Shown: positions 6,746 through 50,199, numbered from the stretch's first letter. The stretch: 64,000 nucleotides of DNA from Candidatus Latescibacterota bacterium (GCA_965203175.1 OZ241867.1:5472001-5536000), one strand, 5' to 3'. Notes: generated from the letters alone by a model not told the origin. Translations and numbers: made by a program.

Positions 6746-6768
6746 AGCTGTGATCGGGGCGTCTGCTC

Positions 6769-7524: not shown

Positions 7525-7525
7525 C

Positions 7526-8425: not shown

Positions 8426-8488
8426 CCGCGTCTCTCGCCTTTCTTGATGCTGCCGGGCGAAAGGCATCCCCTCGTTGCAATATGTCAA
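8426..8488 (+). repeat. Direct repeat copy 1 (imperfect ~60 bp ending in perfect 19-mer CCTCGTTGCAATATGTCAA)
   Basis: 8470-8488 is identical to 10239-10257; upstream CCGC.TCTCTCGCC..TCTTGA also matches. Confidence 0.8.
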
Positions 8489-8539
8489 TCCTCTCCTTGT
8501 TTAAGTCAGTTTCTACGCTATATTTCTGACATTATACCA

Positions 8540-33518: not shown

Positions 33519-35531
33519 ATGCGTTTCATCTTTGCCATCCCCTTTTCGTTTCTTCTGCCCAGTGCTCTGTCGGCGCAAATAAGCACTTGGCAGCTCGGCG
33601 GCAGCGACGGCCTTGCATGGTCGGCAAGCGATTCAGTGCACATCTTCATCGACTTCGATTCCATCCCCGGGGCCATCCAGCCCATCTACCTGACTTCTGC
33701 CCAAACTGTCTTTTCTCACCTCGACAACTGGTCTCCGTGGAAATTCCCCCGCGAGATGGGCTATGTCGATGGCCAGCGGCCCCGCGCTTGGAAGCACGGC
33801 TTAGGAGACTCGCGAACCGTACACAATGCCACGTACCTAGTCGATGGCGACAGCACCACCTACAACCCTCCGTCCTCAGACCTGCGGAACTTCGACTGGT
33901 TTACCTTTGACGTGGCAGTGCCCGTCCCGGCCACCCGCTTCGGCTTTTTCACGCCACCGCGTGGTTTCCGCTCGGATGGTACTCCACTAGCCGACGATGC
34001 TGTCCCTGCCTTTGAAGTGAGCGTTGCCACCGAAGCCGATCCCGCATGGCATGGGCACAATTCCTACGCGCGCATCGGGCCGCTTATCGCCGACGTCGCC
34101 GAAAACCTGTCTCCCACCGTGCGAATCGACCTGCCCCGCCAATATGTCCGCTTCATCCGCTGGCGGCGCAACGAGTCCGTACTCGATCCGACCTTGGTCG
34201 TCCAAGAGAACTCGCTGTCGGGTCAAGCGCGGCCAGGCACCATCGGCGACTTTGAACTCTACGCCCACGGGGTCCCGCAGCGCGTGCTGTATCTATCCAA
34301 CATCATCGATCTCGGCGCGGAAGTGAACTTTGGCCGATTGTTCTGGTCGGCGACTTCCATGCGGATGGCAGACGGCACCTTGGTCCCGGCACCTGAAGCG
34401 GCTGTCGGGTTGCGCGTCGAGGTGCGCACCGGTAGGGATCAAGACCCCAATATCTACCGCGAATTCGACGACAAGGGCCGCGAGGTTGAAGTCTCGCGCC
34501 AGCGTTACGAGTTTGAACTCAAGGAGGCGCAAGGCTACGGCTACGTCGCCGGCGAGCGGCCTGGGGTCCGCGCGTCAATAGCCTATGACGAGGACAACTG
34601 GACCTTCTGGTCGCCCGCCTTCTCCGCGCCTGGCCAGCCGCTCAACCTGCACAATGGCTCCCATATCCAAGTCAAAATCACCCTCGATAGCGCGGATTTC
34701 GACGCCTTTACGCGCCTAGATTCACTGTGGATCGAGCAGGCACCCCTCCTAGCGCGCCAGATCGTCGGCGAAGTAGCCCGCCTCGACGACCCGCAACCGA
34801 GCGGTTTCACCGAAGTGGCCCTAGGGCAGGCGACGAGTTTCAGCTACGATATTCGCGCCGACTTTGCAGCCTCCGAGTCGGGCTTCGACGCGCTGCGCAT
34901 TCGCACCGGCAGCCGAGTCCACCTTCAGACGCTGGCAATGGGCGACCCATTGGTGTCCGTCGAGCCCCTCCGGGTCGAGATCAACGACGACGAATTCCGC
35001 ATCGAGTTGCCCGAGCGGGTCCACGCTGCCAACAACGTGCCCATCCGCATCGAGTTCACAACCGATGTCTTCGTCTTCGCCACGACCTTCGAAGGAGAAG
35101 CTATCGACACGACGACCGAACGCCTGCCCCAACCTATTCGGGGCGGCGATGCCACAGCCGCCGTATCGACCAACAGCCTGCGCGTGCTGAGTGCGAAGAC
35201 CGGCCCCATCAATGCAATCCAGAACCTGCGCTTTTCAACACCGGTTTTGACCCCCAACGGCGACCATGTAAACGACCTAGTGCAGGTCTCTTATTCCCTC
35301 TTCCGCCTACCTGCTAGCGTACCCGTCGAACTGCGGGCCTATTCTCTGGATGGCCGGCAAGTCGCACGCCTATCGTTTGCGCCGCAGGCTGCTGGACCGC
35401 AGCACCTTCGCTGGGACGGACGAGACGAGTTGGGACAACTCCTGCCACCCGGCCTCTACCTGCTTGAAGTAGGGCTGCAATCCGACGAGATCAGTGATCA
35501 CCTACTGCGTCCGCTGGGCATCGCCTACTGA
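33519..35531 (+). CDS. Secreted CTD protein, subtype A (A1)
   Basis: Signal peptide; QISTWQLGG, VDGDSTTYN, IIDLG.EVNFGRLFW, NWTFWS, LTPNGDHVND; ends LGIAY. Confidence 0.88.
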   Translation: MRFIFAIPFSFLLPSALSAQISTWQLGGSDGLAWSASDSVHIFIDFDSIPGAIQPIYLTSAQTVFSHLDNWSPWKFPREMGYVDGQRPRAWKHGLGDSRTVHNATYLVDGDSTTYNPPSSDLRNFDWFTFDVAVPVPATRFGFFTPPRGFRSDGTPLADDAVPAFEVSVATEADPAWHGHNSYARIGPLIADVAENLSPTVRIDLPRQYVRFIRWRRNESVLDPTLVVQENSLSGQARPGTIGDFELYAHGVPQRVLYLSNIIDLGAEVNFGRLFWSATSMRMADGTLVPAPEAAVGLRVEVRTGRDQDPNIYREFDDKGREVEVSRQRYEFELKEAQGYGYVAGERPGVRASIAYDEDNWTFWSPAFSAPGQPLNLHNGSHIQVKITLDSADFDAFTRLDSLWIEQAPLLARQIVGEVARLDDPQPSGFTEVALGQATSFSYDIRADFAASESGFDALRIRTGSRVHLQTLAMGDPLVSVEPLRVEINDDEFRIELPERVHAANNVPIRIEFTTDVFVFATTFEGEAIDTTTERLPQPIRGGDATAAVSTNSLRVLSAKTGPINAIQNLRFSTPVLTPNGDHVNDLVQVSYSLFRLPASVPVELRAYSLDGRQVARLSFAPQAAGPQHLRWDGRDELGQLLPPGLYLLEVGLQSDEISDHLLRPLGIAY

Positions 35532-35541
35532 AGGTGGAGCT

Positions 35542-37887
35542 ATGCGCTTCCTCGTTGCCTTTGCAGCTTGGCTCGCTTTGCCGACCGTTTCCGGCTGGAC
35601 CGAAATGCTGAGTTTCGACAGCGCAGAAAAATGGCAAAGCTGGACCATGCCTGCCGGGCTAGTACAGGTGGATGCAGAGGGCATGCTGCGTCTGACCAAA
35701 TACCGCAAGGAAGTGGACGCCATCCGCGATGCCCATCTCTTCACCCATTCCACCCAAAAACGCGGCGAAGTGGCAGGCGGAATCTGGCAGGTCGGCAGCG
35801 GAAGCGCGACTGCCGCAAACGCCATCGACGGCGATCCTGCGACCTTCTGGCAGCCCAATCCAGCCGACAAGCTCAAAGATTGGTTCCTCGATATCGACTT
35901 GGGCCGCGCCGTACTCGCCCGCCACATTCGTCTGACCTTTCCCGATCAAGAGGGTGCCCGCCCGCTGCGGCAGTTTACCGTCTATGGCACCACCGGCGCG
36001 CGCATCCAAGCCACGGCCGATGTCTTCAAATACGAGCCAGTCTATCGCACCACCCTGCCCAACCGCGCCACTTCCCTGACCATTCCCCTCGAGTACCCGG
36101 CCGCCGACACCGTCCTGACGGTTGATCCAGACATGGCCATTGATCGAACCTTTGAAAACCGCTACCAAGTGATTCAGTACATTAGTATCGTCGTCGAAGC
36201 CCAGAGCCCAGATGCGGCACTCGCCGAAGTCGAAATACTCACTGTGGGCGACAATATCAGCATCGGCACCGCCGAGCGCGGCACCTTCCTCAACGGCACG
36301 GTAGCCGCGGCCCCCAATAACCTCTTTGACGCCGATATCAACACCACCAACCTCATCACCTCTGGGCGCGGCGACCAAGGTTGGGAGAAGGCCGGGACCT
36401 GGTTCTACGTCGATCTAGGGGCCGTGTTCTTCGTCGATGAACTCTTCCTCTACGTACTCCAACCTTTTGAGGGCACTGCGGGCCATCACCGCGGCTCGGC
36501 CGGCCCAGGTCACAACATCCTAGTTTCGGACGGCTCGCTGAGCGTGGGCACTTCCCTACCCGTACCTGCGCCGCTCGACTACAGCGATCTGCTCACGCAC
36601 GTCAATCCCAAGGCGGATGGCCTCTATCGCATACGCTATAAATTTAGGCCGCGCAGGATGCGCTATATGTTCTGGCACGGCCTGACCGACCGCGATTGGC
36701 AGGAATCCAAATGGGGCGAGTTCATGCTGTTCTCGCCGGGCTATCCCGCTCAAGTCTCACTGCGCTCCGACTTTATCGACCTCGGCCAGATCACCGGCGA
36801 CGAGCGGCCTAAAGTCATCAAGGGCCTGCACTGGGACTCCGACCTGCCTCCTGAAACTAGAATGCAACTGCGCTCGCGTTCGGGCAACGCGCTGGCACCG
36901 ATCTATACCTTCCACAACAAGATCGGCGAAGAGATCACCGAAGAAAAATGGAACAGCTCGCCCAAAGTGCTGCGCGGCCCCATCGACACCACGCTAGTCG
37001 TCGGCGAGGACTGGGACGCTTGGAGCAATGTGTACCAGTTTTCCGGCGAAACCTTTAAATCGCAAAGCCCGCGTCGCTTCGTGCAACTGGAGCTGATTCT
37101 CGCCACCGACCACCCCGAGGTCGCGCCCACAGTCAACGCGCTGTCGATTGAATTCGACGCGGCACTGCTCCAGAGTGCCCGCGGGCGCGTCGAGCCGCGC
37201 AGTGCCTCACCCAACGAGGAGACGGCCTTCACTTATACCCTGTTGCCCAGCGCCAGCCCCGCTGACGTCGGCTTCGACCTAATGCGCTTTGACCTGCCGG
37301 GTCCGATCAATCTGCACAGCGTGAGCGTGGAAAAGGGTGCCGAAACCACCTCGGCGTCGGCCTCCCTGCGCGGAGACTCCCTACTCATCGCTTTACCCGA
37401 ACCAGTCAGAGACGATTCGCTCCACGTCAACTTTACCACCCGCTTAGTGCGCAATGCCACGCTTTTTGCGTTGGACTTAGGCTCCAGCGCGCATCCAGGA
37501 CTGTGGCAGTCGGTCGAACCGGCAGCGCGCCGTGCCAATATCGTCATGCTGCCCGAACTGACCAGCAGCAGCCAGCTCATCGACGACTTTTTCATCTCCT
37601 CGCCGACACTCACGCCCAACGGCGATGGTATCAACGATCAGCTAGAGGTCCGATTCATCGTCCTCAAAGTCGAAGGCCGCGAGCCGCGCGTGAATGTCTT
37701 CGACCTCGCCGGGCGCAAAGTAGCCGTTCTCACGCCAGTCGCCGAGGGATTGCACCGCCTCTTCACATGGGACGGCACCCAAGCCACAGGCGCAGTCGTA
37801 GAGTCTGGCATCTACGTCCTGCGCGTCGATCTGGGTGCCGACTCCGGTGACGATACGGTCCTGCACACCATCTCCGTCGCCTATTAG
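35542..37887 (+). CDS. Secreted CTD protein, subtype B (B1; two discoidin-like modules)
   Basis: Signal peptide; SFDSA..W, AIDGDP.TFW..IDLGRA, TWFYVDLGA, SDFIDLG, LTPNGDGIND; ends ISVAY. Confidence 0.88.
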   Translation: MRFLVAFAAWLALPTVSGWTEMLSFDSAEKWQSWTMPAGLVQVDAEGMLRLTKYRKEVDAIRDAHLFTHSTQKRGEVAGGIWQVGSGSATAANAIDGDPATFWQPNPADKLKDWFLDIDLGRAVLARHIRLTFPDQEGARPLRQFTVYGTTGARIQATADVFKYEPVYRTTLPNRATSLTIPLEYPAADTVLTVDPDMAIDRTFENRYQVIQYISIVVEAQSPDAALAEVEILTVGDNISIGTAERGTFLNGTVAAAPNNLFDADINTTNLITSGRGDQGWEKAGTWFYVDLGAVFFVDELFLYVLQPFEGTAGHHRGSAGPGHNILVSDGSLSVGTSLPVPAPLDYSDLLTHVNPKADGLYRIRYKFRPRRMRYMFWHGLTDRDWQESKWGEFMLFSPGYPAQVSLRSDFIDLGQITGDERPKVIKGLHWDSDLPPETRMQLRSRSGNALAPIYTFHNKIGEEITEEKWNSSPKVLRGPIDTTLVVGEDWDAWSNVYQFSGETFKSQSPRRFVQLELILATDHPEVAPTVNALSIEFDAALLQSARGRVEPRSASPNEETAFTYTLLPSASPADVGFDLMRFDLPGPINLHSVSVEKGAETTSASASLRGDSLLIALPEPVRDDSLHVNFTTRLVRNATLFALDLGSSAHPGLWQSVEPAARRANIVMLPELTSSSQLIDDFFISSPTLTPNGDGINDQLEVRFIVLKVEGREPRVNVFDLAGRKVAVLTPVAEGLHRLFTWDGTQATGAVVESGIYVLRVDLGADSGDDTVLHTISVAY

Positions 37888-37983
37888 AACCTCTATCTCA
37901 GCGGTAATTATTTAATTCGGCGCATGGCTCTTTTTGCGTTATCTTCCCGCTAGCATTTCACCTCGACGGAGGTACAGTGTCCG

Positions 37984-39993
37984 ATGCGCAGTGCTTGGCC
38001 TTTGATCCTAGTCCTCGCCGTTGCGCCCAGCCATGCTCAAGTAGAAAAGTGGCAACTGGGCGGTAGTGGGGAGGCGTGGGACCAGCGCGACTCTCTCCAA
38101 GTCCTCGTCGATTTTGCCGACGGTGCAATCCAGCCGCTCTATTTGCAGCCGCACCAAAACGTCATTCACCTGCTGGAAAACTGGGAATTCTGGCGCGAAC
38201 CCTTCTTACACAACCTCGGCTACGTCGATGGCCAGAAGCCGCGCTTTTGGAACCGCTGGGGCGGTGCCGGCGGCGATCCGACCCAGAGCGGCGTATTCTT
38301 AGTCGATCGCGATTCCACAACCTACAACGCCCCTAAGAGCCAATCGATAACCAGTACCTTCTTTTCGATTGACACCGCCGTGCCAATCCCCGGTGTCGGC
38401 TTCGGCTTCTTCACGCCCTCGCAGGGTTTTCGCTCCGACGGCACGCCGCTGCCTTTCGACACCACGCCGGCCTTCGACGTCTCCATCGGTTCAGACTTAG
38501 AACCCGCGGTCAACTGGGGCGGCAGAGACCTGTTCGAACAGGTCATCGCCAACGTGGGTGCCAACTTCGACCCCGTCGTCCGCATCGACTTCCCGCGCCA
38601 ATACGTGCGCTTCTTTCGCTGGCGCCGACAGACCTCGCTGGCCGACGAGGAAGCCCTCAACATCTGCCGCGACTGCGGCGGCCAAGGCAACCAAGCCATC
38701 GCGCTCAAAGGCTCAATCGGGGGATTTGAGGTCTTCGGCCAAGGCATACCCCAGCGCGTCGTGTACCTCAGCCAAGTTGTCGATCTGGGCCAAGTCGTGA
38801 ATTTCGGTCGCCTGCACTGGGCGGGCACGCCGCTGCGCCTGGTCGATGGCGAGATCGTCGAAGATGCCAACGCCCCCGTCTGGCTCAAGGCCAAGGTCCG
38901 CGTCGGTCGCGACGACAGCCCGGCGACCTACCACGAATACACCAACATCGGCCGCGAGAAGGAGGTCTCGCGCGAGCACTACGAGTCGCTCACCGCCCAA
39001 CTCAACCGCGATCCACGGCCCGGGATTCGCGCCTCCATCGGCTACGATTCCGCCAACTGGTCCTTCTGGTCGGTGCCTTTTACCGAATCGGGCCAACTCA
39101 TCCGGCTCAGAAGCGGATCGCATCTACAGGTGGACCTTTCTCTGGAAAGCCGCGACTTCGACGCTTGGATGCGGATTGACTCGCTGTGGATTGAGACCGC
39201 GCCCCTATTGGCCGCCGAGGTTTTCGCCGAAGTGGCTCGGCGCGACGACCCGCAGCCCAAGCGCGGTTTTACTGAAGTGGCCTTGGGCCAAGAGACCGAA
39301 TTCGTCTATCAGGTGCGAGCCGAATTCGACGACGCCAGCACGCCTGGCTTCGACGCGCTCAGGATCCACACCGGCAGCCGCACCGCCTTTCGCCGCCTCG
39401 AAATGGGCACCCCGCTCGCTCCCGTCGATCCAGTCGCAGTAGCGGAAGACGACGGGTTGGTGATCCAATTGCCCCAGCGCGTCACTAGCACCGACAACGC
39501 GCCGGTCCGCGTGACCTTCGCCACCGCAGTTTTTGAATTCGCCTCCACCTTTACCGGCGAGATATTTGCCGCCGACAGCGAATCACTCCCCCAGCCGATT
39601 CTCGCCGGCGACGCCGACGAAGCAGTCTCCACCAATAGCCTACGGGTGCTGGGCGCGAACGACGAAACACCTGATTTCATCCAATCGCTCGCTTTGTCCA
39701 CCCCGGTGCTGACCCCCAATGGCGACGGCGTCCACGACCAACTCCAGATGCGTTATTCGCTCTTCCGCCTCCCCGGTGCAGTACCCGTAGCACTGGAAGT
39801 GTACGCCTTGGACGGCCGTCGCATCGCCCGCCTCGACAAGGGCCTGCAAGACTCGGGCGCGCAGGCGATCACGTGGGACGGCCGCGACGAGACCGGCCAA
39901 CTCCTCCCGCCGGGCCTCTACTTGCTCTCCATCGCGCTGCAAACCCAGTTCGTCCAGGCCAAACAACTATTGGCCGTGGGCATTGCCTATTAG
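37984..39993 (+). CDS. Secreted CTD protein, subtype A (A2)
   Basis: QVEKWQLGG; same motifs as A1; LTPNGDGVHD; ends VGIAY. Confidence 0.88.
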   Translation: MRSAWPLILVLAVAPSHAQVEKWQLGGSGEAWDQRDSLQVLVDFADGAIQPLYLQPHQNVIHLLENWEFWREPFLHNLGYVDGQKPRFWNRWGGAGGDPTQSGVFLVDRDSTTYNAPKSQSITSTFFSIDTAVPIPGVGFGFFTPSQGFRSDGTPLPFDTTPAFDVSIGSDLEPAVNWGGRDLFEQVIANVGANFDPVVRIDFPRQYVRFFRWRRQTSLADEEALNICRDCGGQGNQAIALKGSIGGFEVFGQGIPQRVVYLSQVVDLGQVVNFGRLHWAGTPLRLVDGEIVEDANAPVWLKAKVRVGRDDSPATYHEYTNIGREKEVSREHYESLTAQLNRDPRPGIRASIGYDSANWSFWSVPFTESGQLIRLRSGSHLQVDLSLESRDFDAWMRIDSLWIETAPLLAAEVFAEVARRDDPQPKRGFTEVALGQETEFVYQVRAEFDDASTPGFDALRIHTGSRTAFRRLEMGTPLAPVDPVAVAEDDGLVIQLPQRVTSTDNAPVRVTFATAVFEFASTFTGEIFAADSESLPQPILAGDADEAVSTNSLRVLGANDETPDFIQSLALSTPVLTPNGDGVHDQLQMRYSLFRLPGAVPVALEVYALDGRRIARLDKGLQDSGAQAITWDGRDETGQLLPPGLYLLSIALQTQFVQAKQLLAVGIAY

Positions 39994-39999
39994 CGGCCA

Positions 40000-42336
40000 A
40001 TGCGTGCTTTGTTGCTCTCGGTTCTTTGTTCGGCGACAGTGCTCGCCGCCGCGGAATTCCGCTTCGACAGCGCTGCTAGCTGGTCAACCTGGAAGATGCC
40101 CCATGGCTTGATCGAATTTGACGACCGCGGCCAGTTGCGACTGATCAAATTCCGCAAGGATATCAACGCCATCGCCAACGCGACCGAATTCACTCATCTC
40201 ACTCGCTCGCGCGGTGCCAACGTGCCGGGCGGGATCTGGGAAGCCGGCAGCAACCCGGCCGCAGCCGGGCGGATCATTGACGGCGACCGCAAGACCTTCT
40301 GGCAGGCCTCTGCCGACGACGACTTAGGCGATTGGTTCGTGCAGATTGACCTCGGCCGCACCGTGCTAGCCAACGAGATCCGCCTGCACTTCCCCGACCA
40401 AGCAGGGGCACGCCCCTTCCGCCAGTTCACCGTTTTCACCGCCACGGGCATTACTTCCGACGCCCTCGACGATCTTTTTATTTTTCGCCCGGTCTATCTC
40501 ACGACTCAACCCAACCGGGATACCACCATCTCGATTCCCCTCGCCTTCGACCTCCAAGACAGCGCCCAGGTCCTCGACCCCAATCGAGACGTCGATCTGG
40601 AAAAATTCAACCAATATCGCCTCATCCAGTACATCAACTTTACCGTTGAAGACTTCGATCCCGAAGGTGCCCTAGCCGAGGTCGAAGTCTTCGCCGTTGG
40701 CGACAACGTCAGCTTGGGCAACGACCAGCGCGGCGGCATCATCGACGGGCTTACCGCCCGCTCCACCGAGAATATTCTCGACGGCGACATGAACACCGCC
40801 AGTTCCATCCTGCCCGTGGGCTTTGAGGGCCGCGTCCGCACTTGGGAGGATCAGGGCACTTGGTTTTTCATCGACCTAGGAGCCGTATTCTGGATCGACG
40901 AGCTTTTCCTCTACGCGCTCAGGCCGCGCGAGGGCACGGTCGGGAGCGTGGCCAGCCCGCCGCGAGGCTTTACCTTCCTCCACTCAGACGGCACCCGCGT
41001 CATCAGCTCCCAACTTCCCATCCCCGAATCCTTCGACTTCGCTACCCTCATCGACCAACCCGACGCCGATCCCATGCGCTATCTGCGCTATCTGTTCCAA
41101 CCGCGCAGAGTCCGCTACCTGTTTTGGCACGCCCACATCCCCCAAGGGTGGGGTTCGCGCTGGACCGAACTGATGCTGTTTTCGCCGGGCCATCCCGCCG
41201 AGGTCGTCATGCGCTCGGACTTTATCGATCTCGGCAAGACTGCTGGCGATGGACGTCCCAAAGTCATCAGCAACCTCTCTTGGGACGCCGACATCCCACC
41301 TAGCACTCGCCTGCTAGTGCGCTCGCGCTCGGGCAATACCCAAGGCGAAGTCTATGCTTTCCACGACAAGATCGGCGAGCCGATCACCGAGGAGAAATGG
41401 CTCAGCCTACCCAAAGTGCTGCGGGGAAGGATCGACACCTCCGTCGTGGTCAGCGAAGACTGGGATGCGTGGAGCGAGGCGTACAACTTTTCCGGCGAGT
41501 CATTCAAGTCGCAAAGCCCGCGCCGCTTCGTACAGTTGGAACTGATCCTGTCAACCGATGATCCACAGGTGGCACCCGCGATTGACGCGCTGTCCCTCGA
41601 GTACGAGGACGCGCTGTTGCAGGGCGCACGCGGCCTGATTGCCCCCAGAGTCGCCCTGCCCAACGAGGACACCCGCTTCACCTATACCCTGTTGTCCGCA
41701 GCCGATGCCGAGGACACGGGTTTCGACATACTGCGCTTTGACCTTCCCGCTAAGGCTGCCGATGTCGAAATTCGCGTGAGCGATGCCCATATCGAGCCAT
41801 CTTCCATAGCCATCCGCGCCGACACCCTCCAGATCGGCCTGCCGCGTGCGATCACCGCCGACTCCGTCCAAGTCAGCTTCACCACCCGCGTAGTACACAA
41901 CGCCACGCTCTTCGGCCTCGACTTGGGTTCGAGCACCCATCCAGATCTGTGGCAATCGGTCGAGCCGCTGATGCGCCGCGCCAATATCGTCATGCTCCCC
42001 ACTCTGACCGGCACCACTCAGCTCATCGACGAACTCTCGATTTCCTCACCGATACTCACCCCCAACGGCGACGGCATCAACGACGCAGTGGTTATCCGCT
42101 TCGTCGCCTTCAAGGTCCAGCAACGCACGCCCCAAGTGCGCATTTTCGATCTCGCCGGACGGCCAGTCACTGAACTGGCGACTCCGGTCATCGACGGCGT
42201 GGCCTACGTTTTCACCTGGAACGGACGCGCTACTCAAGGCAACCTCGTACCGCCCGGCACCTATCTCTGCCGCATCGACCTAGCGGCTGACGCTGGCGAC
42301 GATACAGCGCTGCGCACCATCGCCGTAGCGTACTGA
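40000..42336 (+). CDS. Secreted CTD protein, subtype B (B2)
   Basis: FRFDSA.SW; same motifs as B1; ends IAVAY. Confidence 0.88.
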   Translation: MRALLLSVLCSATVLAAAEFRFDSAASWSTWKMPHGLIEFDDRGQLRLIKFRKDINAIANATEFTHLTRSRGANVPGGIWEAGSNPAAAGRIIDGDRKTFWQASADDDLGDWFVQIDLGRTVLANEIRLHFPDQAGARPFRQFTVFTATGITSDALDDLFIFRPVYLTTQPNRDTTISIPLAFDLQDSAQVLDPNRDVDLEKFNQYRLIQYINFTVEDFDPEGALAEVEVFAVGDNVSLGNDQRGGIIDGLTARSTENILDGDMNTASSILPVGFEGRVRTWEDQGTWFFIDLGAVFWIDELFLYALRPREGTVGSVASPPRGFTFLHSDGTRVISSQLPIPESFDFATLIDQPDADPMRYLRYLFQPRRVRYLFWHAHIPQGWGSRWTELMLFSPGHPAEVVMRSDFIDLGKTAGDGRPKVISNLSWDADIPPSTRLLVRSRSGNTQGEVYAFHDKIGEPITEEKWLSLPKVLRGRIDTSVVVSEDWDAWSEAYNFSGESFKSQSPRRFVQLELILSTDDPQVAPAIDALSLEYEDALLQGARGLIAPRVALPNEDTRFTYTLLSAADAEDTGFDILRFDLPAKAADVEIRVSDAHIEPSSIAIRADTLQIGLPRAITADSVQVSFTTRVVHNATLFGLDLGSSTHPDLWQSVEPLMRRANIVMLPTLTGTTQLIDELSISSPILTPNGDGINDAVVIRFVAFKVQQRTPQVRIFDLAGRPVTELATPVIDGVAYVFTWNGRATQGNLVPPGTYLCRIDLAADAGDDTALRTIAVAY

Positions 42337-42403
42337 TATTGCTCAAATAGGACAATTACTTACGTCGCATTATATTAATCCTTTCTTCGGAAGGAGAGCC
42401 ATT

Positions 42404-44437
42404 ATGCGCCGTGCCACAATCGTCCTGTTCACCCTAATTCTAGCGCAAAGTGCCACCGCCCAGATTTCCCACTGGCAACTAGGCGGCAGCGGCCTAGCCT
42501 GGAGCGAGAACGACACCACCCGCCTCTTCGTCGATTTCGCAACGACCCCCGGTGCCATCCAGCCCACGTACTTCACGCAGGACGAGACGGTTTTTTCCCA
42601 CATCGGCAATTGGGCCTTCTGGCGCGACCCCAGTGACCGCATCTTCGACTACCTCGACGGCGAAACACCCCGGATGTGGAAGTGGAACCACGGCGTGCCC
42701 GATCCATCGGAAAACGGCTCCTGGCTCATCGACAGCGACCCTATCACCTACAATCCGCCCAAAGCCGACCGCATTGAAAAGGAAACTTTCACCATGGATT
42801 TGGCCGTGTCGGTGCCAGCGGTGGCCTTTGGCTTTATCCCGCCCAGCGAAGGCTTTCGATCCGACGGGACCCCGCTGGAAACGGACTTCGTTCCCGCCTT
42901 TCAGGTGACCGCCTCGGTCGCGCCCGAACCTCCAGTCCTCGAAGGCAATGTCAACCCACTCTCCACCGTCATCGCCGATGTTGACAACAATTTTACCCCG
43001 CGGGTCCGCATTGACTTCAACCGCCAGTATCTGCGCTTTTTCCGCTACCGAAGGACGCTCTCGCTACTGGATGAGGACGCCCAAGCCAAGAGCGGCAATG
43101 TCGCCTTTGCTCTCATCGGCTCGATCAGCGAATTCCAGCTCTTCGCCCAAGGCGTGCCGCAGCAGGCCATCTACAAGACCAAGATAATCGACCTCGGCAA
43201 ACCCGTGAATTTCGGGCGGCTGTTCTGGCAGGCGACGAAATTCCGCATGGTCAATGGGACCCCGGTGGAAACCCCCGACGCGGCGGCGCAACTTAAGATT
43301 GAGGTGCGCACCGGCTTAGACGACGATCCGGCCGTCTATCACGAATACATGGACACCGGACTGGAGCGGGTAGTCTCGCGCGACCACTACGAAAATGCCC
43401 TGCGCACCCGCTTCGTGCGTATTACCGCTGCATCCGACCTGAGCGAACGCCAGCCCAAGCCGGGCGTCCGCGCGTCCATCGGCTACGATTCAGACAACTG
43501 GACTTTCTGGTCCGCACCCTTCGTCGAATCGGGCCAACCGATCAACCTGCGCAACGGCACCCATTTGCAGTTCCGCGTCACCATGGAAAGCGATTCCTTC
43601 GACGACTTCGTGCACCTCGACTCGCTGTGGCTCGAAACCGCCCCGCTGTTGGCCGCCAACGTGCGCGGCGAAGTGGCTCCCCTAGACGATCCACAGCCCG
43701 CCAGCGGGATCACTCAAGTCCCCTTGGGCGAAGCAATAGAATTTGTCTATGATCTCCAAGCCGATTTCGCGACAGTTGACGCACCCGGCTTCGACCTGTT
43801 GCGCATTCGCACGGGGCACCAAACCGAACTCAAAAGCCTACAACTAGGCGAGAGCCGCACGGAAACTGCGCCTGCTGAGATCACCCAAGAGCCCGAGGGC
43901 CTACTCATCCACCTGCCCGAGCGCATCACCCGCGCCAACAATCCGCCGATCCGCATTGTCTTTGGCACGGAGATCTTTGAATTCGCAACCACTTTCCAGA
44001 GCGAGGTCCTAGACAGCGAACGCGACGTTCTGCCGCAACCTGTAGTCGGTGCTGATGTCGGCGCGGCCCTCTCGACCAACAGCCTGCGCGTGCTCGGCAC
44101 CACGGGGCAAACAACCGCCTTCATCCAGAACCTGACCTTTTCCTCTTCGGTCTTTACGCCCAACGGCGACGGTATCAACGACGAACTGCGCGTGGCCTAT
44201 TCGCTGTTCCGCCTGCCCGAAACCGTTCCCGTCGTCCTCGAGGTCTATAGCCTCGACGGGCGGCGCGTGGCCCTCGTCGAGGCCGGCTTGCAGAGCGCGG
44301 GGCCGCAGAGCCTGCAATGGGACGGGCGCGATGAATCGGGTCGGCGGCTGACGCCCGGTCTCTACTTGGTGGCTTTAGACCTGCGCTCGGAATTTGCTGC
44401 CGATCCCCAACTCCGTCCCTTGGGCATTGCCTACTAA
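42404..44437 (+). CDS. Secreted CTD protein, subtype A (A3)
   Basis: 677 aa; QISHWQLGG; FTPNGDGIND; ends LGIAY. Confidence 0.9.
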   Translation: MRRATIVLFTLILAQSATAQISHWQLGGSGLAWSENDTTRLFVDFATTPGAIQPTYFTQDETVFSHIGNWAFWRDPSDRIFDYLDGETPRMWKWNHGVPDPSENGSWLIDSDPITYNPPKADRIEKETFTMDLAVSVPAVAFGFIPPSEGFRSDGTPLETDFVPAFQVTASVAPEPPVLEGNVNPLSTVIADVDNNFTPRVRIDFNRQYLRFFRYRRTLSLLDEDAQAKSGNVAFALIGSISEFQLFAQGVPQQAIYKTKIIDLGKPVNFGRLFWQATKFRMVNGTPVETPDAAAQLKIEVRTGLDDDPAVYHEYMDTGLERVVSRDHYENALRTRFVRITAASDLSERQPKPGVRASIGYDSDNWTFWSAPFVESGQPINLRNGTHLQFRVTMESDSFDDFVHLDSLWLETAPLLAANVRGEVAPLDDPQPASGITQVPLGEAIEFVYDLQADFATVDAPGFDLLRIRTGHQTELKSLQLGESRTETAPAEITQEPEGLLIHLPERITRANNPPIRIVFGTEIFEFATTFQSEVLDSERDVLPQPVVGADVGAALSTNSLRVLGTTGQTTAFIQNLTFSSSVFTPNGDGINDELRVAYSLFRLPETVPVVLEVYSLDGRRVALVEAGLQSAGPQSLQWDGRDESGRRLTPGLYLVALDLRSEFAADPQLRPLGIAY

Positions 44438-44447
44438 GGAAGGCTCG

Positions 44448-44564
44448 ATGCGACGCGCAACCCAAGGAGACCTCGTACCACTCGGCACCTATCTCTGCCG
44501 CATCGCCCTAGCGGCTGACGCTGGCGACGCTACAGCGCTGCGCACCATCGCCGTAGCGTACTGA
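44448..44564 (+). pseudogene. 38-aa chimeric B-gene remnant at the duplication junction
   Basis: MRRATQGDLVPLGTYLCRIALAADAGDATALRTIAVAY is the RBS/start of B3 fused in frame to the C-terminus of B2. Confidence 0.8.
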
Positions 44565-44633
44565 TTGTTTAAATAGGATAATTGATTCCGGCGCATTATA
44601 TTACCCATGCTTCCCGCAAAAAGGAGGGTCATC

Positions 44634-46667
44634 ATGCGTCGAGCCACAATCGTCCTGTTCACCCTAATTTTAGCGCAAAGTGCCACCGCCCAGATTTCCC
44701 ACTGGCAACTAGGCGGCAGCGGCCTAGCCTGGAGCGAGAACGACACCACCCGCCTCTTCGTCGATTTCGCAACGACCCCTGGTGCCATCCAGCCCACGTA
44801 CTTAACGCTAGACGAGACGGTTTTTTCCCACATCGACAATTGGGCCTTTTGGCGCGACCCCAGCGACCGCATTTTCGACTACCTCGACGGCGAAACACCC
44901 CGGATGTGGAAGTGGAACAACGGCGTGCCCGATCCATCGGAAAACGGCTCCTGGCTCATCGACGGCGACCCTCTCACCTATAACCCCCCAATGGCCGACC
45001 TCGTCGAAAAAGAAAGCTTCACCATGGATTTAGCCGTGGCGGTACCAGCGGTGGCCTTTGGCTTTATCTCGCCCAGTGAGGGCTTTCGTGTCGATGGGAC
45101 CCCTCTGGAAACGGACTTCGTCCCCGCCTTTCAGGTGACCGCCTCAGTCGCGCCCGAACCTCCAGTCCTCGAAGGCAATGTCAACCCACTCTCCACCGTC
45201 ATCGCCGATGTTGACAACAATTTTACCCCGCAGATCCGCTTCGACTTCAACCGCCAGTATCTGCGCTTCTTTCGCTACCGCCGGATTATCTCGATACTAG
45301 ACGAGGACGCCCAAGCCAAGATCAGCAAAATCACCTTCTCCCTCATCGGCACAATCAGCGAGTTCCAACTCTTTGCCCAAGGAATACCGCAGCGGAGCAT
45401 CTACAAGACCAAGATAACCGACCTCGGCAAACCCGTGAATTTCGGGCGGCTGTTCTGGCAGGCGACAAAGTTCCGCATGGTCGATGGGACCCCAGTGGAA
45501 ACCCCCAACGCGGCGGCCCAGATCAAGGTCGAGGTGCGCACTGGCCTAGACGACGACCCGGCCGTCTATCACGAGTACATGGATACCGGACTGGAGCGGG
45601 TAGTTTCGCGCGACCACTACGAAAACGCCCTGCGCACCCGCTTCGTGCGCATCGGCTCCTCATCCGACCTGAGCGAACGCCAGCCCAAGCCGGGCATCCG
45701 CGCATCCATCGGCTATGATTCAGACAACTGGACTTTCTGGTCCGCACCCTTCGTCGAATCGGGCCAACCAATCAACCTGCGCAACGGCACCCATTTGCAG
45801 TTCCGCGTCACCATGGAAAGCGATTCCTTCGACGATTTCGTGCGCCTCGACTCGCTGTGGCTCGAAACCGCCCCGCTGTTGGCCGCCAACGTACGCGGCG
45901 AAGTGGCTCCCCTAGACGATCCACAGCCCGCCAGCGGGATCACTCAAGTCCCCTTGGGCGAAGCAATAGAATTTGTCTATGATCTCCAAGCCGATTTCGC
46001 GACGGTTGACGCCCCCGGCTTCGACCTGTTGCGCATTCACACAGGGCACCAAACCGAACTCAAAAGCCTGCAACTAGGCGAGAGCCGCACGGAAACTGCG
46101 CCTGCTGAGATCACCCAAGAGCCCGAGGGCCTACTCATTCACCTGCCCGAGCGCATCACCCGCGCCAACAATCCGCCGATCCGCATTGTCTTTGGCACGG
46201 AGATCTTTGAATTCGCAACCACCTTCCAGAGCGAGGTCCTAGACAGCGAACGCGATGTTCTGCCGCAACCTGTAGTCGGTGCTGATGTCGGCGCGGCCCT
46301 CTCGACCAACAGCCTGCGCGTGCTCGGCACCACGGGGCAAACAACCGCCTTCATCCAGAACCTGACCTTTTCCTCTTCGGTCTTTACGCCCAACGGCGAC
46401 GGTATCAACGACGAACTGCGCGTGGCCTATTCGCTGTTCCGCCTGCCCGAAACCGTTCCCGTCGTCCTCGAGGTCTATAGCCTCGACGGGCGGCGCGTGG
46501 CCCTCGTCGAGGCCGGCTTGCAGAGCGCGGGGCCGCAGAGCTTGCAATGGGATGGCCGTGATGAAACAGGTCGGCGGCTGACGCCCGGTCTCTACTTGGT
46601 GGCTTTAGACCTGCGCTCGGAATTTGCTGCCGATGCCCAACTCCGCCCCTTGGGCATTGCCTACTAA
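44634..46667 (+). CDS. Secreted CTD protein, subtype A (A4; recent paralog of A3)
   Basis: 677 aa, colinear with A3; AAGGAGG RBS before ATG 44634. Confidence 0.9.
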   Translation: MRRATIVLFTLILAQSATAQISHWQLGGSGLAWSENDTTRLFVDFATTPGAIQPTYLTLDETVFSHIDNWAFWRDPSDRIFDYLDGETPRMWKWNNGVPDPSENGSWLIDGDPLTYNPPMADLVEKESFTMDLAVAVPAVAFGFISPSEGFRVDGTPLETDFVPAFQVTASVAPEPPVLEGNVNPLSTVIADVDNNFTPQIRFDFNRQYLRFFRYRRIISILDEDAQAKISKITFSLIGTISEFQLFAQGIPQRSIYKTKITDLGKPVNFGRLFWQATKFRMVDGTPVETPNAAAQIKVEVRTGLDDDPAVYHEYMDTGLERVVSRDHYENALRTRFVRIGSSSDLSERQPKPGIRASIGYDSDNWTFWSAPFVESGQPINLRNGTHLQFRVTMESDSFDDFVRLDSLWLETAPLLAANVRGEVAPLDDPQPASGITQVPLGEAIEFVYDLQADFATVDAPGFDLLRIHTGHQTELKSLQLGESRTETAPAEITQEPEGLLIHLPERITRANNPPIRIVFGTEIFEFATTFQSEVLDSERDVLPQPVVGADVGAALSTNSLRVLGTTGQTTAFIQNLTFSSSVFTPNGDGINDELRVAYSLFRLPETVPVVLEVYSLDGRRVALVEAGLQSAGPQSLQWDGRDETGRRLTPGLYLVALDLRSEFAADAQLRPLGIAY

Positions 46668-46677
46668 GGAGGGTTCG

Positions 46678-49029
46678 ATGCGACGTGCAATCATCGCCTA
46701 CCTCGTGCTAGCCGTCCCACTCGCCGCTGACATGCTCTCCTTTGACAGCGCCGAGGAATGGGCCCAATGGCAACAGCCCTTCGGTTTGGTCCAGGTCGGC
46801 GAACAGGGCCAGCTCTCACTCGTCAAATTCCGCAAGGATATCAACCTCGTCGAGAACGCGCACCTCTTCGTCCACGAGACCCGTACCCGGGGCGATGCCG
46901 TCGCCGGTGGGCTCTGGCAAGCCGGCTCCAACGAGGCCGACGCCCCGCTGGCCATCGACGGCGATCCAACGACCTATTGGCAACCCAGCCCGGACGACGC
47001 CCCCGAGGATTGGTTTATCACCATCGACTTAGGCCGCGCTGCCCTGGCCCGCGAGATTCGCCTAAAATTCCCCGACCAAGAGGACGCGCGTCCATTCCGC
47101 CAATTCCGCGTCTTCACAACCTCCGGCGTGCGCATCTCGGCCACCGAAGACCTCTTTCTCTACCGCCAAGCCTTCCGCACCACGCGCCCCAACGCCGAAT
47201 CAGAAATTGTCATCCCGTTGCGCTACGCTGGTCGCGACAGCGCGCTAGTGTTTGACCTTGATTTGGATCTAACGCCCACAGAACGCAACGACTACCGGTT
47301 AATCCAGTACATCCAAATCATTTCCGAAGAGCAGAACGCCAACGCCGCCCTCGCCGAGGTCGAGGTCATCGGCATTGGCGACAACATTGCCATAGGCACC
47401 AGCCTACGCGGCAATTTCAAAGAAGGCGATGGCACCGGCTCCACCCCCAACCTCTTCGACGCCAACCTCAACACCAACAATACCGTCACCGGCTGCCGTG
47501 GTAATCTGTCGGGATGGGCCGAAGGTGGCACGTGGTTCCGCGCGGATCTAGGAGCGACATTCTTTATCGACGAGATGTTCCTCTATTCCATGCGGCCAGA
47601 CGAAGGCACATTGGGTTTCACCGTCTCTGGGGCTGGGCCAGGACACACCATCCTCTTTTCCGACGGCACCCCGGCCACGGGCACCGCCCCACCCGTCGAA
47701 GTGCCCGAAAACGTCGATTACGAAGAGGTCTTCTCCCATCCGGCCCCCAACGCCGACGACCTGCTCTACATGCGCTATCTGTTTGAGCCGCGCAAGGCCC
47801 GCTACCTGTTCTGGCGCGGAATTAGCTGCAAGGGATGGGGTATCGTCAAGTGGGGTGAGTTACAACTATTCTCACCGGGTTATCCGGCCCAAGTCGAGTT
47901 GCGGTCGGACTTTATCAACCTCGGCGAGGTAGCCGGCGATGGGCGGCCCAAAGTCATCAAGGCCCTGCACTGGGACGCCGACTTGCCTCCGGGCACCCGC
48001 TTGCAATTGCGCTCCCGCTCGGGCAATGCGCTCAGCGCGGAGTTCACCTTTTACAACAAGAAGGGCGATCTGGTCACCGAGGAGAAGTGGAACAGCTTGC
48101 CCAAGGTGATCAGGGGACCTGTTGACTCGACCTTAGTCACGGGCGAAGACTGGAACGAGTTCAGCAATATCTACCAGTTTTCGGGCGAGGCCTTCAAATC
48201 GGCCAGTCCGCGCCGCTTCATATTGCTGGAGATGATCCTCTCCACCGACGACCCCGCCGTCGCCCCGACCGTCAATTCAGTCTCCGTCGAGTTCGAGGAG
48301 GCTCTAGTCCAAGGCGCGCGCGGCAGCGTCGCTCCCCGCGAGGCCAACCCCAACCAAGACACGCACTTCACCTACACCCTCTGGCCCGAGACCGACGAAC
48401 TCGACAGCGGCTTCGACCTAATGCGCTTCACCGTCCCCGAACCTGTTGATCTCCAGAGCGTCTCGGTGATGGTAGGTGCAGAATCGGTCGTTCCGGCTAC
48501 CCTGGACATGCAGGCCGACTCGCTGCTCATCGAGTTGCCGCAGGCGATTTCCGGCGACTCGCTGCAAGTGAGCTTCACTACCCGCCTGCTGCAAAACGCC
48601 ACCGTCTTTACCCTCGACCTCGGCTTGAGCGAAACACCGGGTCTATGGCAATCGGTCGAGGCGGCCGAGCGCCGCTCCAACATCGTCATGCTACCCGAAC
48701 TGACCAGCAGCGGCCAGCTCATCAGCGACCTGCAACTAGCCTCTACGACCGTAACCCCCAACGGCGACGGCATCAACGACCAGCTAGAGGTGCGATTTGT
48801 CGCCTTCAAAGTCGAGGGCTCGGAGCCAAGAGTGGAAGTTTTCGACCTAGCCGGACGCCAAGTAGCAGTCCTCACCCCAAGCGCCGAAGGCTCGCAACGC
48901 CTCTTCACTTGGGACGGCCGCGACGCCGACGGAGCGAGCGCCGCACCCGGCCTGTACGTCCTGCGCGTCAATCTGGGTGCCGATGCAGGCAATGACACTG
49001 CGTTCCGCACCATTGCCGTGGCGTACTAA
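46678..49029 (+). CDS. Secreted CTD protein, subtype B (B3)
   Basis: LSFDSAEEW; same motifs as B1/B2; ends IAVAY; AAGGAGG RBS. Confidence 0.88.
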   Translation: MRRAIIAYLVLAVPLAADMLSFDSAEEWAQWQQPFGLVQVGEQGQLSLVKFRKDINLVENAHLFVHETRTRGDAVAGGLWQAGSNEADAPLAIDGDPTTYWQPSPDDAPEDWFITIDLGRAALAREIRLKFPDQEDARPFRQFRVFTTSGVRISATEDLFLYRQAFRTTRPNAESEIVIPLRYAGRDSALVFDLDLDLTPTERNDYRLIQYIQIISEEQNANAALAEVEVIGIGDNIAIGTSLRGNFKEGDGTGSTPNLFDANLNTNNTVTGCRGNLSGWAEGGTWFRADLGATFFIDEMFLYSMRPDEGTLGFTVSGAGPGHTILFSDGTPATGTAPPVEVPENVDYEEVFSHPAPNADDLLYMRYLFEPRKARYLFWRGISCKGWGIVKWGELQLFSPGYPAQVELRSDFINLGEVAGDGRPKVIKALHWDADLPPGTRLQLRSRSGNALSAEFTFYNKKGDLVTEEKWNSLPKVIRGPVDSTLVTGEDWNEFSNIYQFSGEAFKSASPRRFILLEMILSTDDPAVAPTVNSVSVEFEEALVQGARGSVAPREANPNQDTHFTYTLWPETDELDSGFDLMRFTVPEPVDLQSVSVMVGAESVVPATLDMQADSLLIELPQAISGDSLQVSFTTRLLQNATVFTLDLGLSETPGLWQSVEAAERRSNIVMLPELTSSGQLISDLQLASTTVTPNGDGINDQLEVRFVAFKVEGSEPRVEVFDLAGRQVAVLTPSAEGSQRLFTWDGRDADGASAAPGLYVLRVNLGADAGNDTAFRTIAVAY

Positions 49030-49033
49030 TCCT

Positions 49034-50164
49034 ATGGCCGAACAAACCTACGACCTCTTGGTGCGCGCCCCGCGTCTCTTCTGTGCGGATAGCGGCCTAG
49101 ATGGCCCTGGCGCAGTCGCCATTCGCGGCGACCGCATTGTCGCCTCCGGCCCCGCCGTCGAGGGACCGGTCCACACCGTACTCGACTTCCCCGATGCCCT
49201 CCTCCTCCCCGGCCTAGTCGATCTGCACGCCCATCCGGCCCGCGGCCAATCGCGCTTTGGCATCGACCCAGACATCCACTTTTTGCCGCGCGGCGTCACC
49301 ACCGTCATGTCCCAAGGCGATGCCGGGGCTGTGAACATCGACGACTATCGCCGCACCGTGATCGAGGCCTCGCGCACCCGAGTGCTCCTAGCCATCAACC
49401 TGTGCAAACGCGGCGAGACCCACCCCGTGCGCTGCTTCAACGACTTGGCCGACGCCGATGCCCAAGCCTGCGCCGACGCTATTGCCGCAGACGACCGCAG
49501 CATTTGGGGCATTGCCGTCACCGTCACCGGCGGGGCCTGCGCCGACGGCCTCGACCCGCGTCCCATTATGGCCGCCGGGCTAGAGGCCGCGGAATTGAGC
49601 GGCAAACCACTGCTGGTGGGCACTCGCCTCAAACCCGACTGGCCCCGCCGCGAACAACTCCCCCTGTTGCGCCCCGGCGACGTGGTGACCTACTCCCTCA
49701 ATGCCTTGCCAGAAAACCTGATGGACGGCGACCGCATTGCCGACGACGTATGGGAAGCTCGCCAGCGCGGCGTCCTCTTCGACTTGGGCCACGGCATGAA
49801 CTCCTTCAGCTTTCCCATTGCCGAGGCCACCATTGCCGAGGGCTTCCTCGTCGATACGGTTTCGACCGACCAGTACCACCGCCACGTTGACAGCCGTCCC
49901 CAGCACGACCTCCCCCGCACGATGTCCAAGCTCATCGCCGCTGGCATGGACGAAGCAGAAGTATTCGCCCGCGCCACGGCCCGCCCCGCCGCCGTGCTGG
50001 GCCTAGAGGGCGAAGTCGGCAGCTTGGCTCCGGGTGCCTGCGCCGACCTAGCCGTGCTGCGCTGGAACGAAGAAGCCCTGCCCCTGCGCGACGTCAACGG
50101 CGAGGAGCGGCCCGGCGGCTGTTGGGAACCGGTGGCTACTATCCGCGGCGGCCAAGTGGTTTAG
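49034..50164 (+). CDS. Metal-dependent amidohydrolase (dihydroorotase-like/deacetylase family)
   Basis: PGLVDLHAH, GVTTV..GDAG, FDLGHG..SFSF, STD, G.L.PGA.AD. Confidence 0.85.
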   Translation: MAEQTYDLLVRAPRLFCADSGLDGPGAVAIRGDRIVASGPAVEGPVHTVLDFPDALLLPGLVDLHAHPARGQSRFGIDPDIHFLPRGVTTVMSQGDAGAVNIDDYRRTVIEASRTRVLLAINLCKRGETHPVRCFNDLADADAQACADAIAADDRSIWGIAVTVTGGACADGLDPRPIMAAGLEAAELSGKPLLVGTRLKPDWPRREQLPLLRPGDVVTYSLNALPENLMDGDRIADDVWEARQRGVLFDLGHGMNSFSFPIAEATIAEGFLVDTVSTDQYHRHVDSRPQHDLPRTMSKLIAAGMDEAEVFARATARPAAVLGLEGEVGSLAPGACADLAVLRWNEEALPLRDVNGEERPGGCWEPVATIRGGQVV

Positions 50165-50199
50165 GGCCGTCCATTTCAACAATCGAGGATCAAAACACA

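Follow-up and report, generated by a model that had tools for sequence, protein, structure and literature searches.

Paired discoidin-headed proteins with type IX secretion-like tails, and the unannotated superfamily to which they belong, in a Latescibacterota genome

A 64,000-nucleotide stretch of DNA from a Candidatus Latescibacterota bacterium (GCA_965203175.1 OZ241867.1:5472001-5536000), referred to here as the window (G000:C1:5472001-5536000 of a single 6.58-Mb contig), includes a row of seven co-oriented paralogous genes, located between nucleotides 33519 and 49029, that code for exported proteins of two subtypes named A and B. The locus raises the question of what these proteins are and whether an A gene and the B gene that follows it constitute a unit. 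An earlier note, generated from the nucleotide sequence, had considered them a two-partner system of variable-head binding proteins. The results described below indicate that A-B pairs are duplicated and inherited as a unit and that the seven genes form a small part of a family, so far unannotated, with about 170 genes in this uncultured bacterium of marine origin. A and B are probably, though with considerable room for doubt, co-expressed, non-catalytic surface glycan-binding proteins of a type IX secretion system (T9SS) kind that represent two paralogous lectin-type classes.

The array and its repeating unit

Open reading frame (ORF) calling and protein identities confirmed seven paralogues of two subtypes, all on the plus strand, in the order A-B, A-B, A-A-B. 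As start codon, an ATG was chosen where it aligned with those of the paralogues. The genes are A1 (33519-35531, 670 amino acids), B1 (35542-37887, 781 amino acids from the ATG, the longest ORF starting with a GTG at 35494), A2 (37984-39993, 669 amino acids), B2 (40000-42336, 778 amino acids), A3 (42404-44437, 677 amino acids), A4 (44634-46667, 677 amino acids from the ATG, the longest ORF starting at 44607), and B4 (46678-49029, 783 amino acids from the ATG, the longest ORF starting with a TTG at 46624). Identity is 49-51% among the A proteins, with the exception of A3 and A4 (94%), and 52-59% among the B proteins; between A and B it is 24-31% and confined to the C-terminal ~430 residues. All seven proteins terminate in AY, as had been remarked before, and the other motifs then named were also located: WQLGG near the N-terminus of mature A, FDSA..W in B, GFD, and the TPNGDG-type tails.

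The gaps between an A gene and the following B gene are 10, 6, and 10 nucleotides (nt) for A1-B1, A2-B2, and A4-B4, respectively, in agreement with the 6-10 nt of the earlier reading, and Shine-Dalgarno-like motifs (GGAGG/GGTGGA) are found just 5' of the B1 and B4 starts. The B-to-A spacers, also as described before, are longer and AT-rich: 96 nt with a G+C content of 0.48 between B1 and A2, and 67 nt with a G+C content of 0.36 between B2 and A3, versus about 0.60 for the region. Overall, the gaps among the seven genes range from 6 to 196 nt and leave no room for a further ORF. The 6-10-nt gaps suggest that A and B are made together from one transcript, with the B start just behind the A stop. 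Scans of the locus for sigma-70-type promoters (one site, 42349-42376 in the B2-A3 spacer, versus 3.4 expected) and for terminators (15 observed versus 14.3 expected) gave no signal.

The A-B pair recurs outside the window. In this genome a close B gene directly follows 9 of the 12 close A ORFs (three in the window and six elsewhere), and an A gene precedes 9 of the 11 B ORFs, the other two following another B at an A-B-B-B locus. The preference is present in five other genomes of the genus as well, where B lies directly downstream of 34 of 45 A genes, and the upstream neighbor of 43 B genes is an A in 34 cases, another B in 7, and neither in 2. Wherever the branching is resolved, the A tree and the B tree are in agreement: the pairs labelled w2 and p481 are sisters with 100/100 in both trees, and w4 groups with p183 in both. 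Pairwise A and B distances over nine pairs are correlated (Mantel r=0.82, p=5e-5), also when the closest pair is left out (r=0.74, p=9e-4). This congruence of trees and distances points to joint duplication, although not by itself to physical interaction. A-B pairs duplicate and are inherited as a unit, and the proposal that A+B is the repeating unit holds. Elsewhere in the genome (G000:C1:4817581-4819675) an A-type gene is split into overlapping ORFs of 347 and 486 amino acids, probably a frameshifted A; an intact B gene with 70% identity to B2 lies directly downstream of it.

The sequence between A3 and A4 had been described as a B remnant. That description has to be abandoned. In the junction ORF (44448-44564, plus strand, 38 codons) the first 5 codons correspond to a B4-type start and continue in frame into the final ~33 codons of a B2-type tail, and a copy of the B2-A3 spacer comes after it. 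A3 lies in the upstream copy of two 2.2-kb units that are 93% identical, with 85-95% identity in the first half and 97-99% in the second. A contig of a relative, from a metatranscriptome library, joins 44340 to 46576, which is the unduplicated form, and array loci compared from eleven other genomes of the genus include G011 and G013, with three A-B pairs and no A-A step, and G007, with two A-B pairs within the 13 kb covered. The hybrid junction and the unduplicated forms in relatives show that no B gene decayed and that a segment reaching from the B2 tail into the opening codons of the last B underwent tandem duplication. The order found in the window is shared by G010, G001, G012, G006, and G003. 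The order in G009 is B-A-A-B-A-B, and two stretches of G016, not checked for synteny, have A-B and A-B-B-A-B. The arrays of two genomes are interrupted: in G002 (A-B, A-B, A; G002:C1:929579-941833) the next B is found ~12 kb beyond the third A, and in G013 (L027, G013:C1:699500-719400) ~8.8 kb separate B1 from A2. The related loci and the junction scar bear out the idea of a repertoire that is expandable by duplication; the array would grow by unequal crossing-over.

Protein architecture and variation

A and B have in common a beta-sandwich core, an immunoglobulin (Ig)-like module, and a C-terminal FlgD-Ig/CHU_C domain; as anticipated, they carry one discoidin-like module in A and two in B. 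These assignments were made on AlphaFold2 models of A1 (pLDDT 83, pTM 0.70) and B2 (pLDDT 82, pTM 0.72), built on 46- and 47-row alignments, respectively. In A1 the signal peptide is followed by N-terminal strands and a single discoidin fold of the carbohydrate-binding module family 32 (CBM32) type (residues ~57-256), which is inserted in the core (~20-56 plus ~257-412); the Ig module that carries GFD (~413-562) and the tail (563-670) complete the protein. B2 is composed of the signal peptide, two tandem discoidin folds (~52-401), the core, the Ig module, and a tail that resembles a T9SS C-terminal domain (CTD).

Comparison of the modeled domains with known structures identified the heads and the tail. 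The A head (residues 62-250) matched the CBM32-6 module of a Clostridium perfringens GH89 enzyme (4a42_B; Z 12.7, rmsd 2.5, 122 aligned), as did the B head (residues 55-233; Z 16.0, rmsd 2.0, 125 of 126 aligned). The double head of B (residues 52-401) matched neuropilin b1b2 (2qqi_A; Z 13.9, 271 aligned), in agreement with Foldseek, which with the B model also returned 1sdd_B (E 6.7e-11). The A tail (563-670) matched the C-terminal domain of PorU (6za2_B 1054-1157; Z 11.6, rmsd 2.5, 100 aligned). The top match of the A core (N-terminal strands plus ~257-410) was to phage tail protein domains (9nwi_Y, Z 11.9), which we treat as a common fold only. Foldseek searches with the whole models yielded only low-TM multi-domain matches (galactose oxidase, complement, S-layer; TM <= 0.25), which were discarded. 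The heads thus have the fold of the CBM32/F5/8 type C modules, but unlike the C. perfringens module they are not attached to a glycoside hydrolase, the A module is inserted inside another beta-sandwich, and sequence scores are at the Pfam threshold.

At the sequence level, Pfam recognized the C-terminal ~90 residues of the seven proteins, FlgD_ig passing its cut-off in four and CHU_C in three, and, in B, F5/8 type C at threshold level: F5_F8_type_C_2 scored 28.1 bits in B2, 27.6 in B1, and 24.8 in B4 versus a cut-off of 27.8, with no match in A, and B1 matched F5/8 type C with 26.7 bits. A DGD..T.W/Y-type motif is found in the discoidin heads. Pfam detected no catalytic domain, neither in the array proteins nor in 20 other members of the family, in line with the previously noted lack of a catalytic motif. 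Searches of PDB sequences with A and B profiles returned only FlgD Ig domains, aligned only to the tail. The FlgD hook-capping protein was considered and rejected as an identity, since just the Ig-like part matches the equivalog models, with 14-24 bits versus cut-offs of 230-383.

A Sec (SPI) signal peptide can be read at the start of all seven translations, in which a hydrophobic core separates the basic n-region from an AxA-like end; AlphaFold2 rendered residues 2-11 of A1 and 2-15 of B2 as a low-confidence N-terminal helix. The A subfamily has a glutamine directly after the predicted cut (A19 and Q20 at least 90% conserved in 46 sequences), visible in the 5' ends of the A genes at 33519-33590, 37984-38050, and 42404-42470; B proteins are without it. 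This glutamine recalls the 'Q-rule' (N-terminal pyroglutamate), which, according to excerpts of PMC5837995, holds in Bacteroidetes and not across the whole FCB group.

A comparison with SusE and SusF is instructive. These are lipoproteins of the Bacteroides starch-utilization loci that bind glycans at the surface and are encoded beside SusC and SusD. Like them, A and B are adjacent paralogous non-catalytic all-beta proteins that differ by one extra carbohydrate-binding module, and a SusE-like chain (7m1b/7m1a) was among the structure matches of both models. Surface exposure is a feature of SusE and SusF that A and B would share. Unlike SusE and SusF, A and B have the CTD-like tail, none of the seven N-termini has a lipobox cysteine after the signal peptide, and no TonB-dependent receptor or SusD family gene was found among the window genes.

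The ratio of nonsynonymous to synonymous substitution rates (dN/dS) among A3/A4-type genes of ten genomes was 0.04-0.43 over every domain, indicating purifying selection; it was 0.04-0.33 in the discoidin head and lowest, 0.04-0.19, in the Ig module. With the highest value at 0.43, no positive selection on the heads was found at the domain level. Between A3 and A4, dS in the Ig module and CTD was 0-0.07 in four of six genomes and 0.14-0.29 in G006 and G003, whereas in the head and core it was 0.10-0.42; between orthologues it was 0.12-0.41. Gene conversion acting on the 3' half would account for this pattern, and it would keep the stalks and tails of tandem copies alike while the heads drift under purifying selection. 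The heads had been described as variable. Across the superfamily introduced below they are strongly so, but inside the subfamilies A and B the variability is modest: in the alignments of 46 and 47 sequences, the entropy of columns is distributed along the proteins, with a few hypervariable, indel-rich loops (181-200, 221-240, and 321-340 in A; 341-360, 581-620, and 721-740 in B).

These data allow a judgment on the proposal of an obligate heteromeric surface receptor or co-polymer, assembled from every A with its cognate B, the paralogous pairs providing a combinatorial repertoire of specificities. We regard this hypothesis as possible but not probable. The conserved order with its short gaps and Shine-Dalgarno-like motifs, the adjacency across genomes, and the correlated divergence of A and B are what such a complex would lead one to expect, and the homologous stalks could pair. 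Correlated trees, however, arise from co-duplication alone; A3 has no B of its own and yet is under purifying selection in six genomes; the A-B-B-B locus, lone A genes, and the five a-a-b triads of distant relatives described below indicate a ratio that is not fixed at 1:1; and in G002 the third A and the B that comes next are ~12 kb apart. A complex prediction with A residues 21-565 and B residues 240-680, both with alignments, returned an ipSAE of 0.00 twice, which weighs neither for nor against binding. The reading that we favor, two co-expressed classes of surface glycan-binding proteins, would have the core and Ig module act as a stalk that holds out one (A) or two (B) CBM32/discoidin heads.

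The superfamily, its predicted export and its neighbors

ORFs of at least 150 amino acids were searched with hidden Markov models (HMMs) of the window A and B proteins, and those scoring at least 55 bits were taken as a superfamily, the class limits and ORF calls being crude. The set comprises 169 ORFs in 98 clusters and occupies 384 kb, or 5.8% of the 6.58-Mb genome. Module HMMs detected the core in 153 of the 169 members and the core-Ig-tail stalk in most, with no recognized head in 45, one discoidin-like module in ~70, and two or more in ~40. All members but one (168/169) end in Y. Two distant members lie at the start of the window on the plus strand: the C-terminal part of a 'long' one (2-1519), which runs off the window and is an 843-amino-acid ORF in the genome, and a 'short' one (1576-3576, 666 amino acids) with core, Ig module, CTD, and a head without Pfam match. 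Given a family of this size, the superfamily matters more than the single array.

The tail is where the superfamily meets the T9SS. CHU_C (PF13585) scored 29.0, 30.8, and 28.6 bits in B1, B2, and B4, respectively, versus a cut-off of 27, and passed that cut-off in 13 of 20 further members scanned; NCBIfam gave weak matches of array proteins to the T9SS type-B sorting domain and the PorU tail. The type-B model TIGR04131 has 68 matches in the genome, six of them over its cut-off, and all 68 are inside superfamily ORFs. The genome also codes for a SprA homolog (SprA_N, 82 bits versus a cut-off of 27, in a 2133-amino-acid ORF) and a PorU homolog (632 bits, cut-off 420). A PorV/PorQ-family outer-membrane protein is encoded in the window itself (21433-22359, plus strand; NF033709, 146 bits, cut-off 90; PorQ equivalog 159 bits, below its cut-off of 220). 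Downstream of this gene and of a PhyH oxygenase gene lie those of two large proteins (23498-26440 and 26643-29048), each of which combines four to five lamin-tail domains with a type-A T9SS CTD just over the NCBIfam cut-off; these over-cut-off CTDs suggest that the organism appears to use CTD sorting. The C-terminal domain of A and B resembles a T9SS type-B sorting signal, and from the tail models and machinery genes we infer secretion by this route: a Sec signal peptide would carry each protein to the periplasm, the type-B-like Ig-fold domain would guide it through the SprA translocon, and the protein would then sit on the cell surface or be released.

A and B have several features in common with known type-B cargo and its PorP/SprF-like shuttle or anchor, as in SprB-SprF from Flavobacterium johnsoniae and PG1035-PorP-PorE from Porphyromonas gingivalis: a Sec signal, a C-terminal Ig-fold domain of ~90 residues matching CHU_C/TIGR04131, non-catalytic adhesin-like passengers, several paralogues per genome, and the accompanying SprA, PorU, and PorV/PorQ-family genes. 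The differences are equally clear. According to excerpts of PMC9143113 and PMC12618676, type-B cargo in Bacteroidota requires PorP/SprF as a shuttle or anchor, and the PorP/SprF-like barrels that bind the cargo usually have their genes next to its own, whereas no PorP/SprF gene adjoins the array, the flanks being Dus, an enolase-superfamily (MR_MLE) gene, and an amidohydrolase gene, and the model scores are mostly below cut-off. The scale differs as well, with 169 members and 68 model matches here versus 12 type-B substrates in F. johnsoniae as given in excerpts of PMC12618676. The host belongs to Latescibacterota, not Bacteroidota, and the fixed A-then-B pairing of two passenger classes is foreign to the known T9SS.

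The distribution of the family is wide and uneven. At E <= 1e-120 each of the 18 other genomes sampled from the genus had 2-14 copies of the close A subfamily, and 12 genomes from two other families in the class had none; within the family, at E <= 1e-150, it was found in 3 of the 18 genera sampled (g1 8/8, g10 8/8, g14 3/5). The core profile occurs in 65 of 121 genomes of the phylum, including 40 of 40 of the window's family, with a patchy presence elsewhere in the phylum; among the 44 genomes that represent three sister families within the class (f2 0/29, f4 0/13, f3 0/2), none had it. Against 1.84 billion cluster representatives the same profile gave 2041 matches at E <= 0.001, 933 at <= 1e-10, and 437 at <= 1e-30. 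The homologues are named 'hypothetical', 'FlgD immunoglobulin-like domain containing', or 'gliding motility-associated C-terminal domain-containing'; those with names come from Latescibacterota or 'Gemmatimonadetes' metagenome-assembled genomes, with which Atlas clusters agree, and a longer homologue search with the core profile returned the same unnamed or 'hypothetical' proteins. DNA sequencing runs labelled sponge or marine metagenome contain 25-81% of the sampled words of the stretch.

No named system with the A-B layout was found in Pfam, NCBIfam, PDB sequences, or the literature, as the earlier note had supposed. In the literature nothing was found that links Latescibacteria with type IX secretion or FlgD, supplements being outside the scope of that search, and none of the matches listed had Latescibacter together with CBM32, discoidin, T9SS, or gliding; excerpts of a genomic study of Latescibacterota associated with sponges (PMC12993501) leave secretion, discoidin, and adhesins unmentioned. 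The parts are thus of known kinds, CBM32 heads and a T9SS-type tail, in a system that is real, conserved, and unannotated, and what is undescribed in the sources searched is the core and Ig modules, the fixed pairing of two classes, the lack of a recognizable shuttle, and the 169-gene scale.

Superfamily clusters have recurrent neighbors. The most frequent, F900 (~911 residues), is represented by 81 ORFs within 4 kb of 59 of the 98 clusters; others are F336 (~310-residue secreted proteins, 38 ORFs), a SurA-like peptidyl-prolyl isomerase (PPIase; 36), TPR and FG-GAP/ASPIC proteins (65), and F10 (~257-residue lipoproteins, 12). F900 has a signal peptide and a strand-like, aromatic-rich sequence; it has no Pfam, NCBIfam, or PDB sequence match, and its nearest named Atlas cluster, a TonB-dependent-receptor-like barrel DUF at 0.89, is a lead only. 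A search of PDB sequences with F336 gave nothing meaningful. Five a-a-b triads, with 32-40% identity of their members to A and B, all have F900 directly downstream of b; F336 lies directly upstream in four, and F10 was detected in three of those four. In comparisons with the cassettes of this genome, identity is 32-35% between A and the 'a' genes and 31-40% between B and the 'b' genes. A repeated cassette of this kind is found at G000:C1 6536950-6548337 (L061 3950-15337), and also at 1155001-1180000 (L058, L059), with F336 of ~310-355 amino acids, F10 of ~240, discoidin/CTD proteins in the order a-a-b, and F900 of ~900, often with the SurA-like PPIase, TPR, and FG-GAP/ASPIC proteins nearby.

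The A/B loci have homologous discoidin/CTD proteins in the same a-then-b order, but as pairs and not triads and without barrel, lipoprotein, or F336, none of which (F900, F336, or F10) was found within 4 kb of any of the nine A/B loci; unlike the cassettes, they form a tandem array in the window. A-B thus appears to derive, without the barrel, from a larger cassette made up of a secreted protein, a lipoprotein, a, a, b, and a barrel-like protein of ~900 residues, which is present many times in this genome, and to have kept the a-then-b order. A and B may rely on a partner that acts in trans, perhaps of the F900 type, or may have none.

Upstream of the array lie Dus and the enolase-superfamily gene (32218-33450, plus strand), which ends 68 nt before A1 and whose best match is L-rhamnonate dehydratase (280 bits, below cut-off); downstream are genes for a deacetylase-type amidohydrolase, a NanA-like aldolase, and a 2-oxoglutarate-dependent oxygenase, with a BNR-repeat protein further on. 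The genes of sugar-acid type around the array are located at 32218-33450, 48977-51099, and 55159-56349; the amidohydrolase, the aldolase, and the L-rhamnonate-dehydratase-like gene all score under their NCBIfam cut-offs. The genome has 53 enolase-superfamily ORFs, and their presence within 4 kb of four of the nine A/B loci (permutation p ~0.01) hints at an association; an initial count of six of nine A/B clusters was reduced to this figure when restricted to A/B genes proper. It could be imagined, by analogy with the orphan type-B cargo that in F. johnsoniae can share one shuttle (excerpts of PMC12618676), that A and B capture a substrate in trans with F900-type barrels, handing over glycans or glycoconjugates or being anchored by them. 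The frequency of F900 beside superfamily clusters, its invariable place behind b in the triads, its barrel-like features, and the sugar-acid genes around the array would agree with such a role. We nevertheless find it improbable: F900 and F336 are absent within 4 kb of the A/B loci, F900 is a putative barrel without a family match, and no transporter genes lie beside the array.

Two other groups of genes in the window were observed. A DUF6088 gene followed by an AbiEii-type nucleotidyltransferase toxin gene (8303-10154) is likely a type IV toxin-antitoxin or abortive-infection pair. On the minus strand (4856-8194), a DUF6785/DUF6784 membrane-type protein gene adjoins an FGE-sulfatase-fold gene and two ORFs without family match.

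Probable glycan binding at the cell surface

Surface location and glycan binding of A and B are suggested by the predicted folds together with the lack of enzyme domains, and several observations weigh against the favored reading. A discoidin fold alone is no proof of glycan binding, and no polysaccharide-utilization context was found around the array. In the A proteins CHU_C scored below its cut-off (18.6-23.0 bits in A2-A4, no match in A1), and TIGR04131 scored 13.2-19.6 bits versus a cut-off of 35 in three of four array proteins scanned, A1 having no match. PorP/SprF (PF11751), GldM (PF12081), and GldL (TIGR03513) had no match in the genome; no control genome responded to the PorP_SprF, GldM_1st, and GldL models, so these absences are not established. 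In four runs of metatranscriptome libraries (two studies), parts of A and B were matched by contigs from relatives, with ~92-93% identity, and one 1228-nt contig crosses the A1/B1 junction, but the contigs cover the flanking genes equally and thus attest to presence in RNA libraries, not to transcription or an operon; the uncovered parts are uninformative.

Part of this evidence could be taken to mean that the tail is a purely structural FlgD-type Ig domain and that the proteins are periplasmic or exported by another route, for instance as a coat or S-layer-like material, which would accommodate tails at or below the curated T9SS cut-offs, the lack of matches to PorP, GldM, and GldL (in searches without a positive control), S-layer and fibril entries among many weak whole-model Foldseek matches (TM <= 0.2), and the description of T9SS as a Bacteroidota system in excerpts of PMC9143113 and PMC12618676, yet is quite unlikely with SprA, PorU, and PorV/PorQ-family genes present, every TIGR04131 match of the genome inside the superfamily, a conserved tail ending in Y in nearly all members, and type-A CTDs over cut-off in other window proteins.

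Export as T9SS-type surface glycan-binding proteins is therefore the reading that we retain for A and B. Of the original interpretation, the exported, non-catalytic, discoidin-headed proteins, the A+B unit, and the duplication have stood, and the 'B remnant' has given way to a duplication scar; this scar, the T9SS type-B-like tail, the 169-member superfamily, and the cassettes of distant relatives with their ~900-residue protein are additions to it. A bolder proposal is that the ~170 stalked lectins of one genome form an evolvable surface recognition repertoire, exported by a PorP-less type-B-like branch of the T9SS outside Bacteroidota, in which A-B pairs are true heteromeric receptors with diversifying heads and with stalk and sorting halves that stay interchangeable through gene conversion. 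Taken as a whole, we think this doubtful; if true, the repertoire would be the main interface of the organism with host or particle glycans.

The finding has meaning at several levels. One 6.58-Mb genome devotes more than a twentieth of its length to 169 paralogues whose family core is without a Pfam or NCBIfam model and without a paper in the literature searched. If the tails are true sorting signals, they would represent type-B-like T9SS export outside Bacteroidota, with no recognizable PorP/SprF and on a scale far above that of the F. johnsoniae substrates. The conserved A-then-B unit offers a clean, testable case of two passenger classes that are inherited together and, in the context of the sponge and marine metagenome matches, the superfamily may bear on how such bacteria meet the glycans of hosts or particles.

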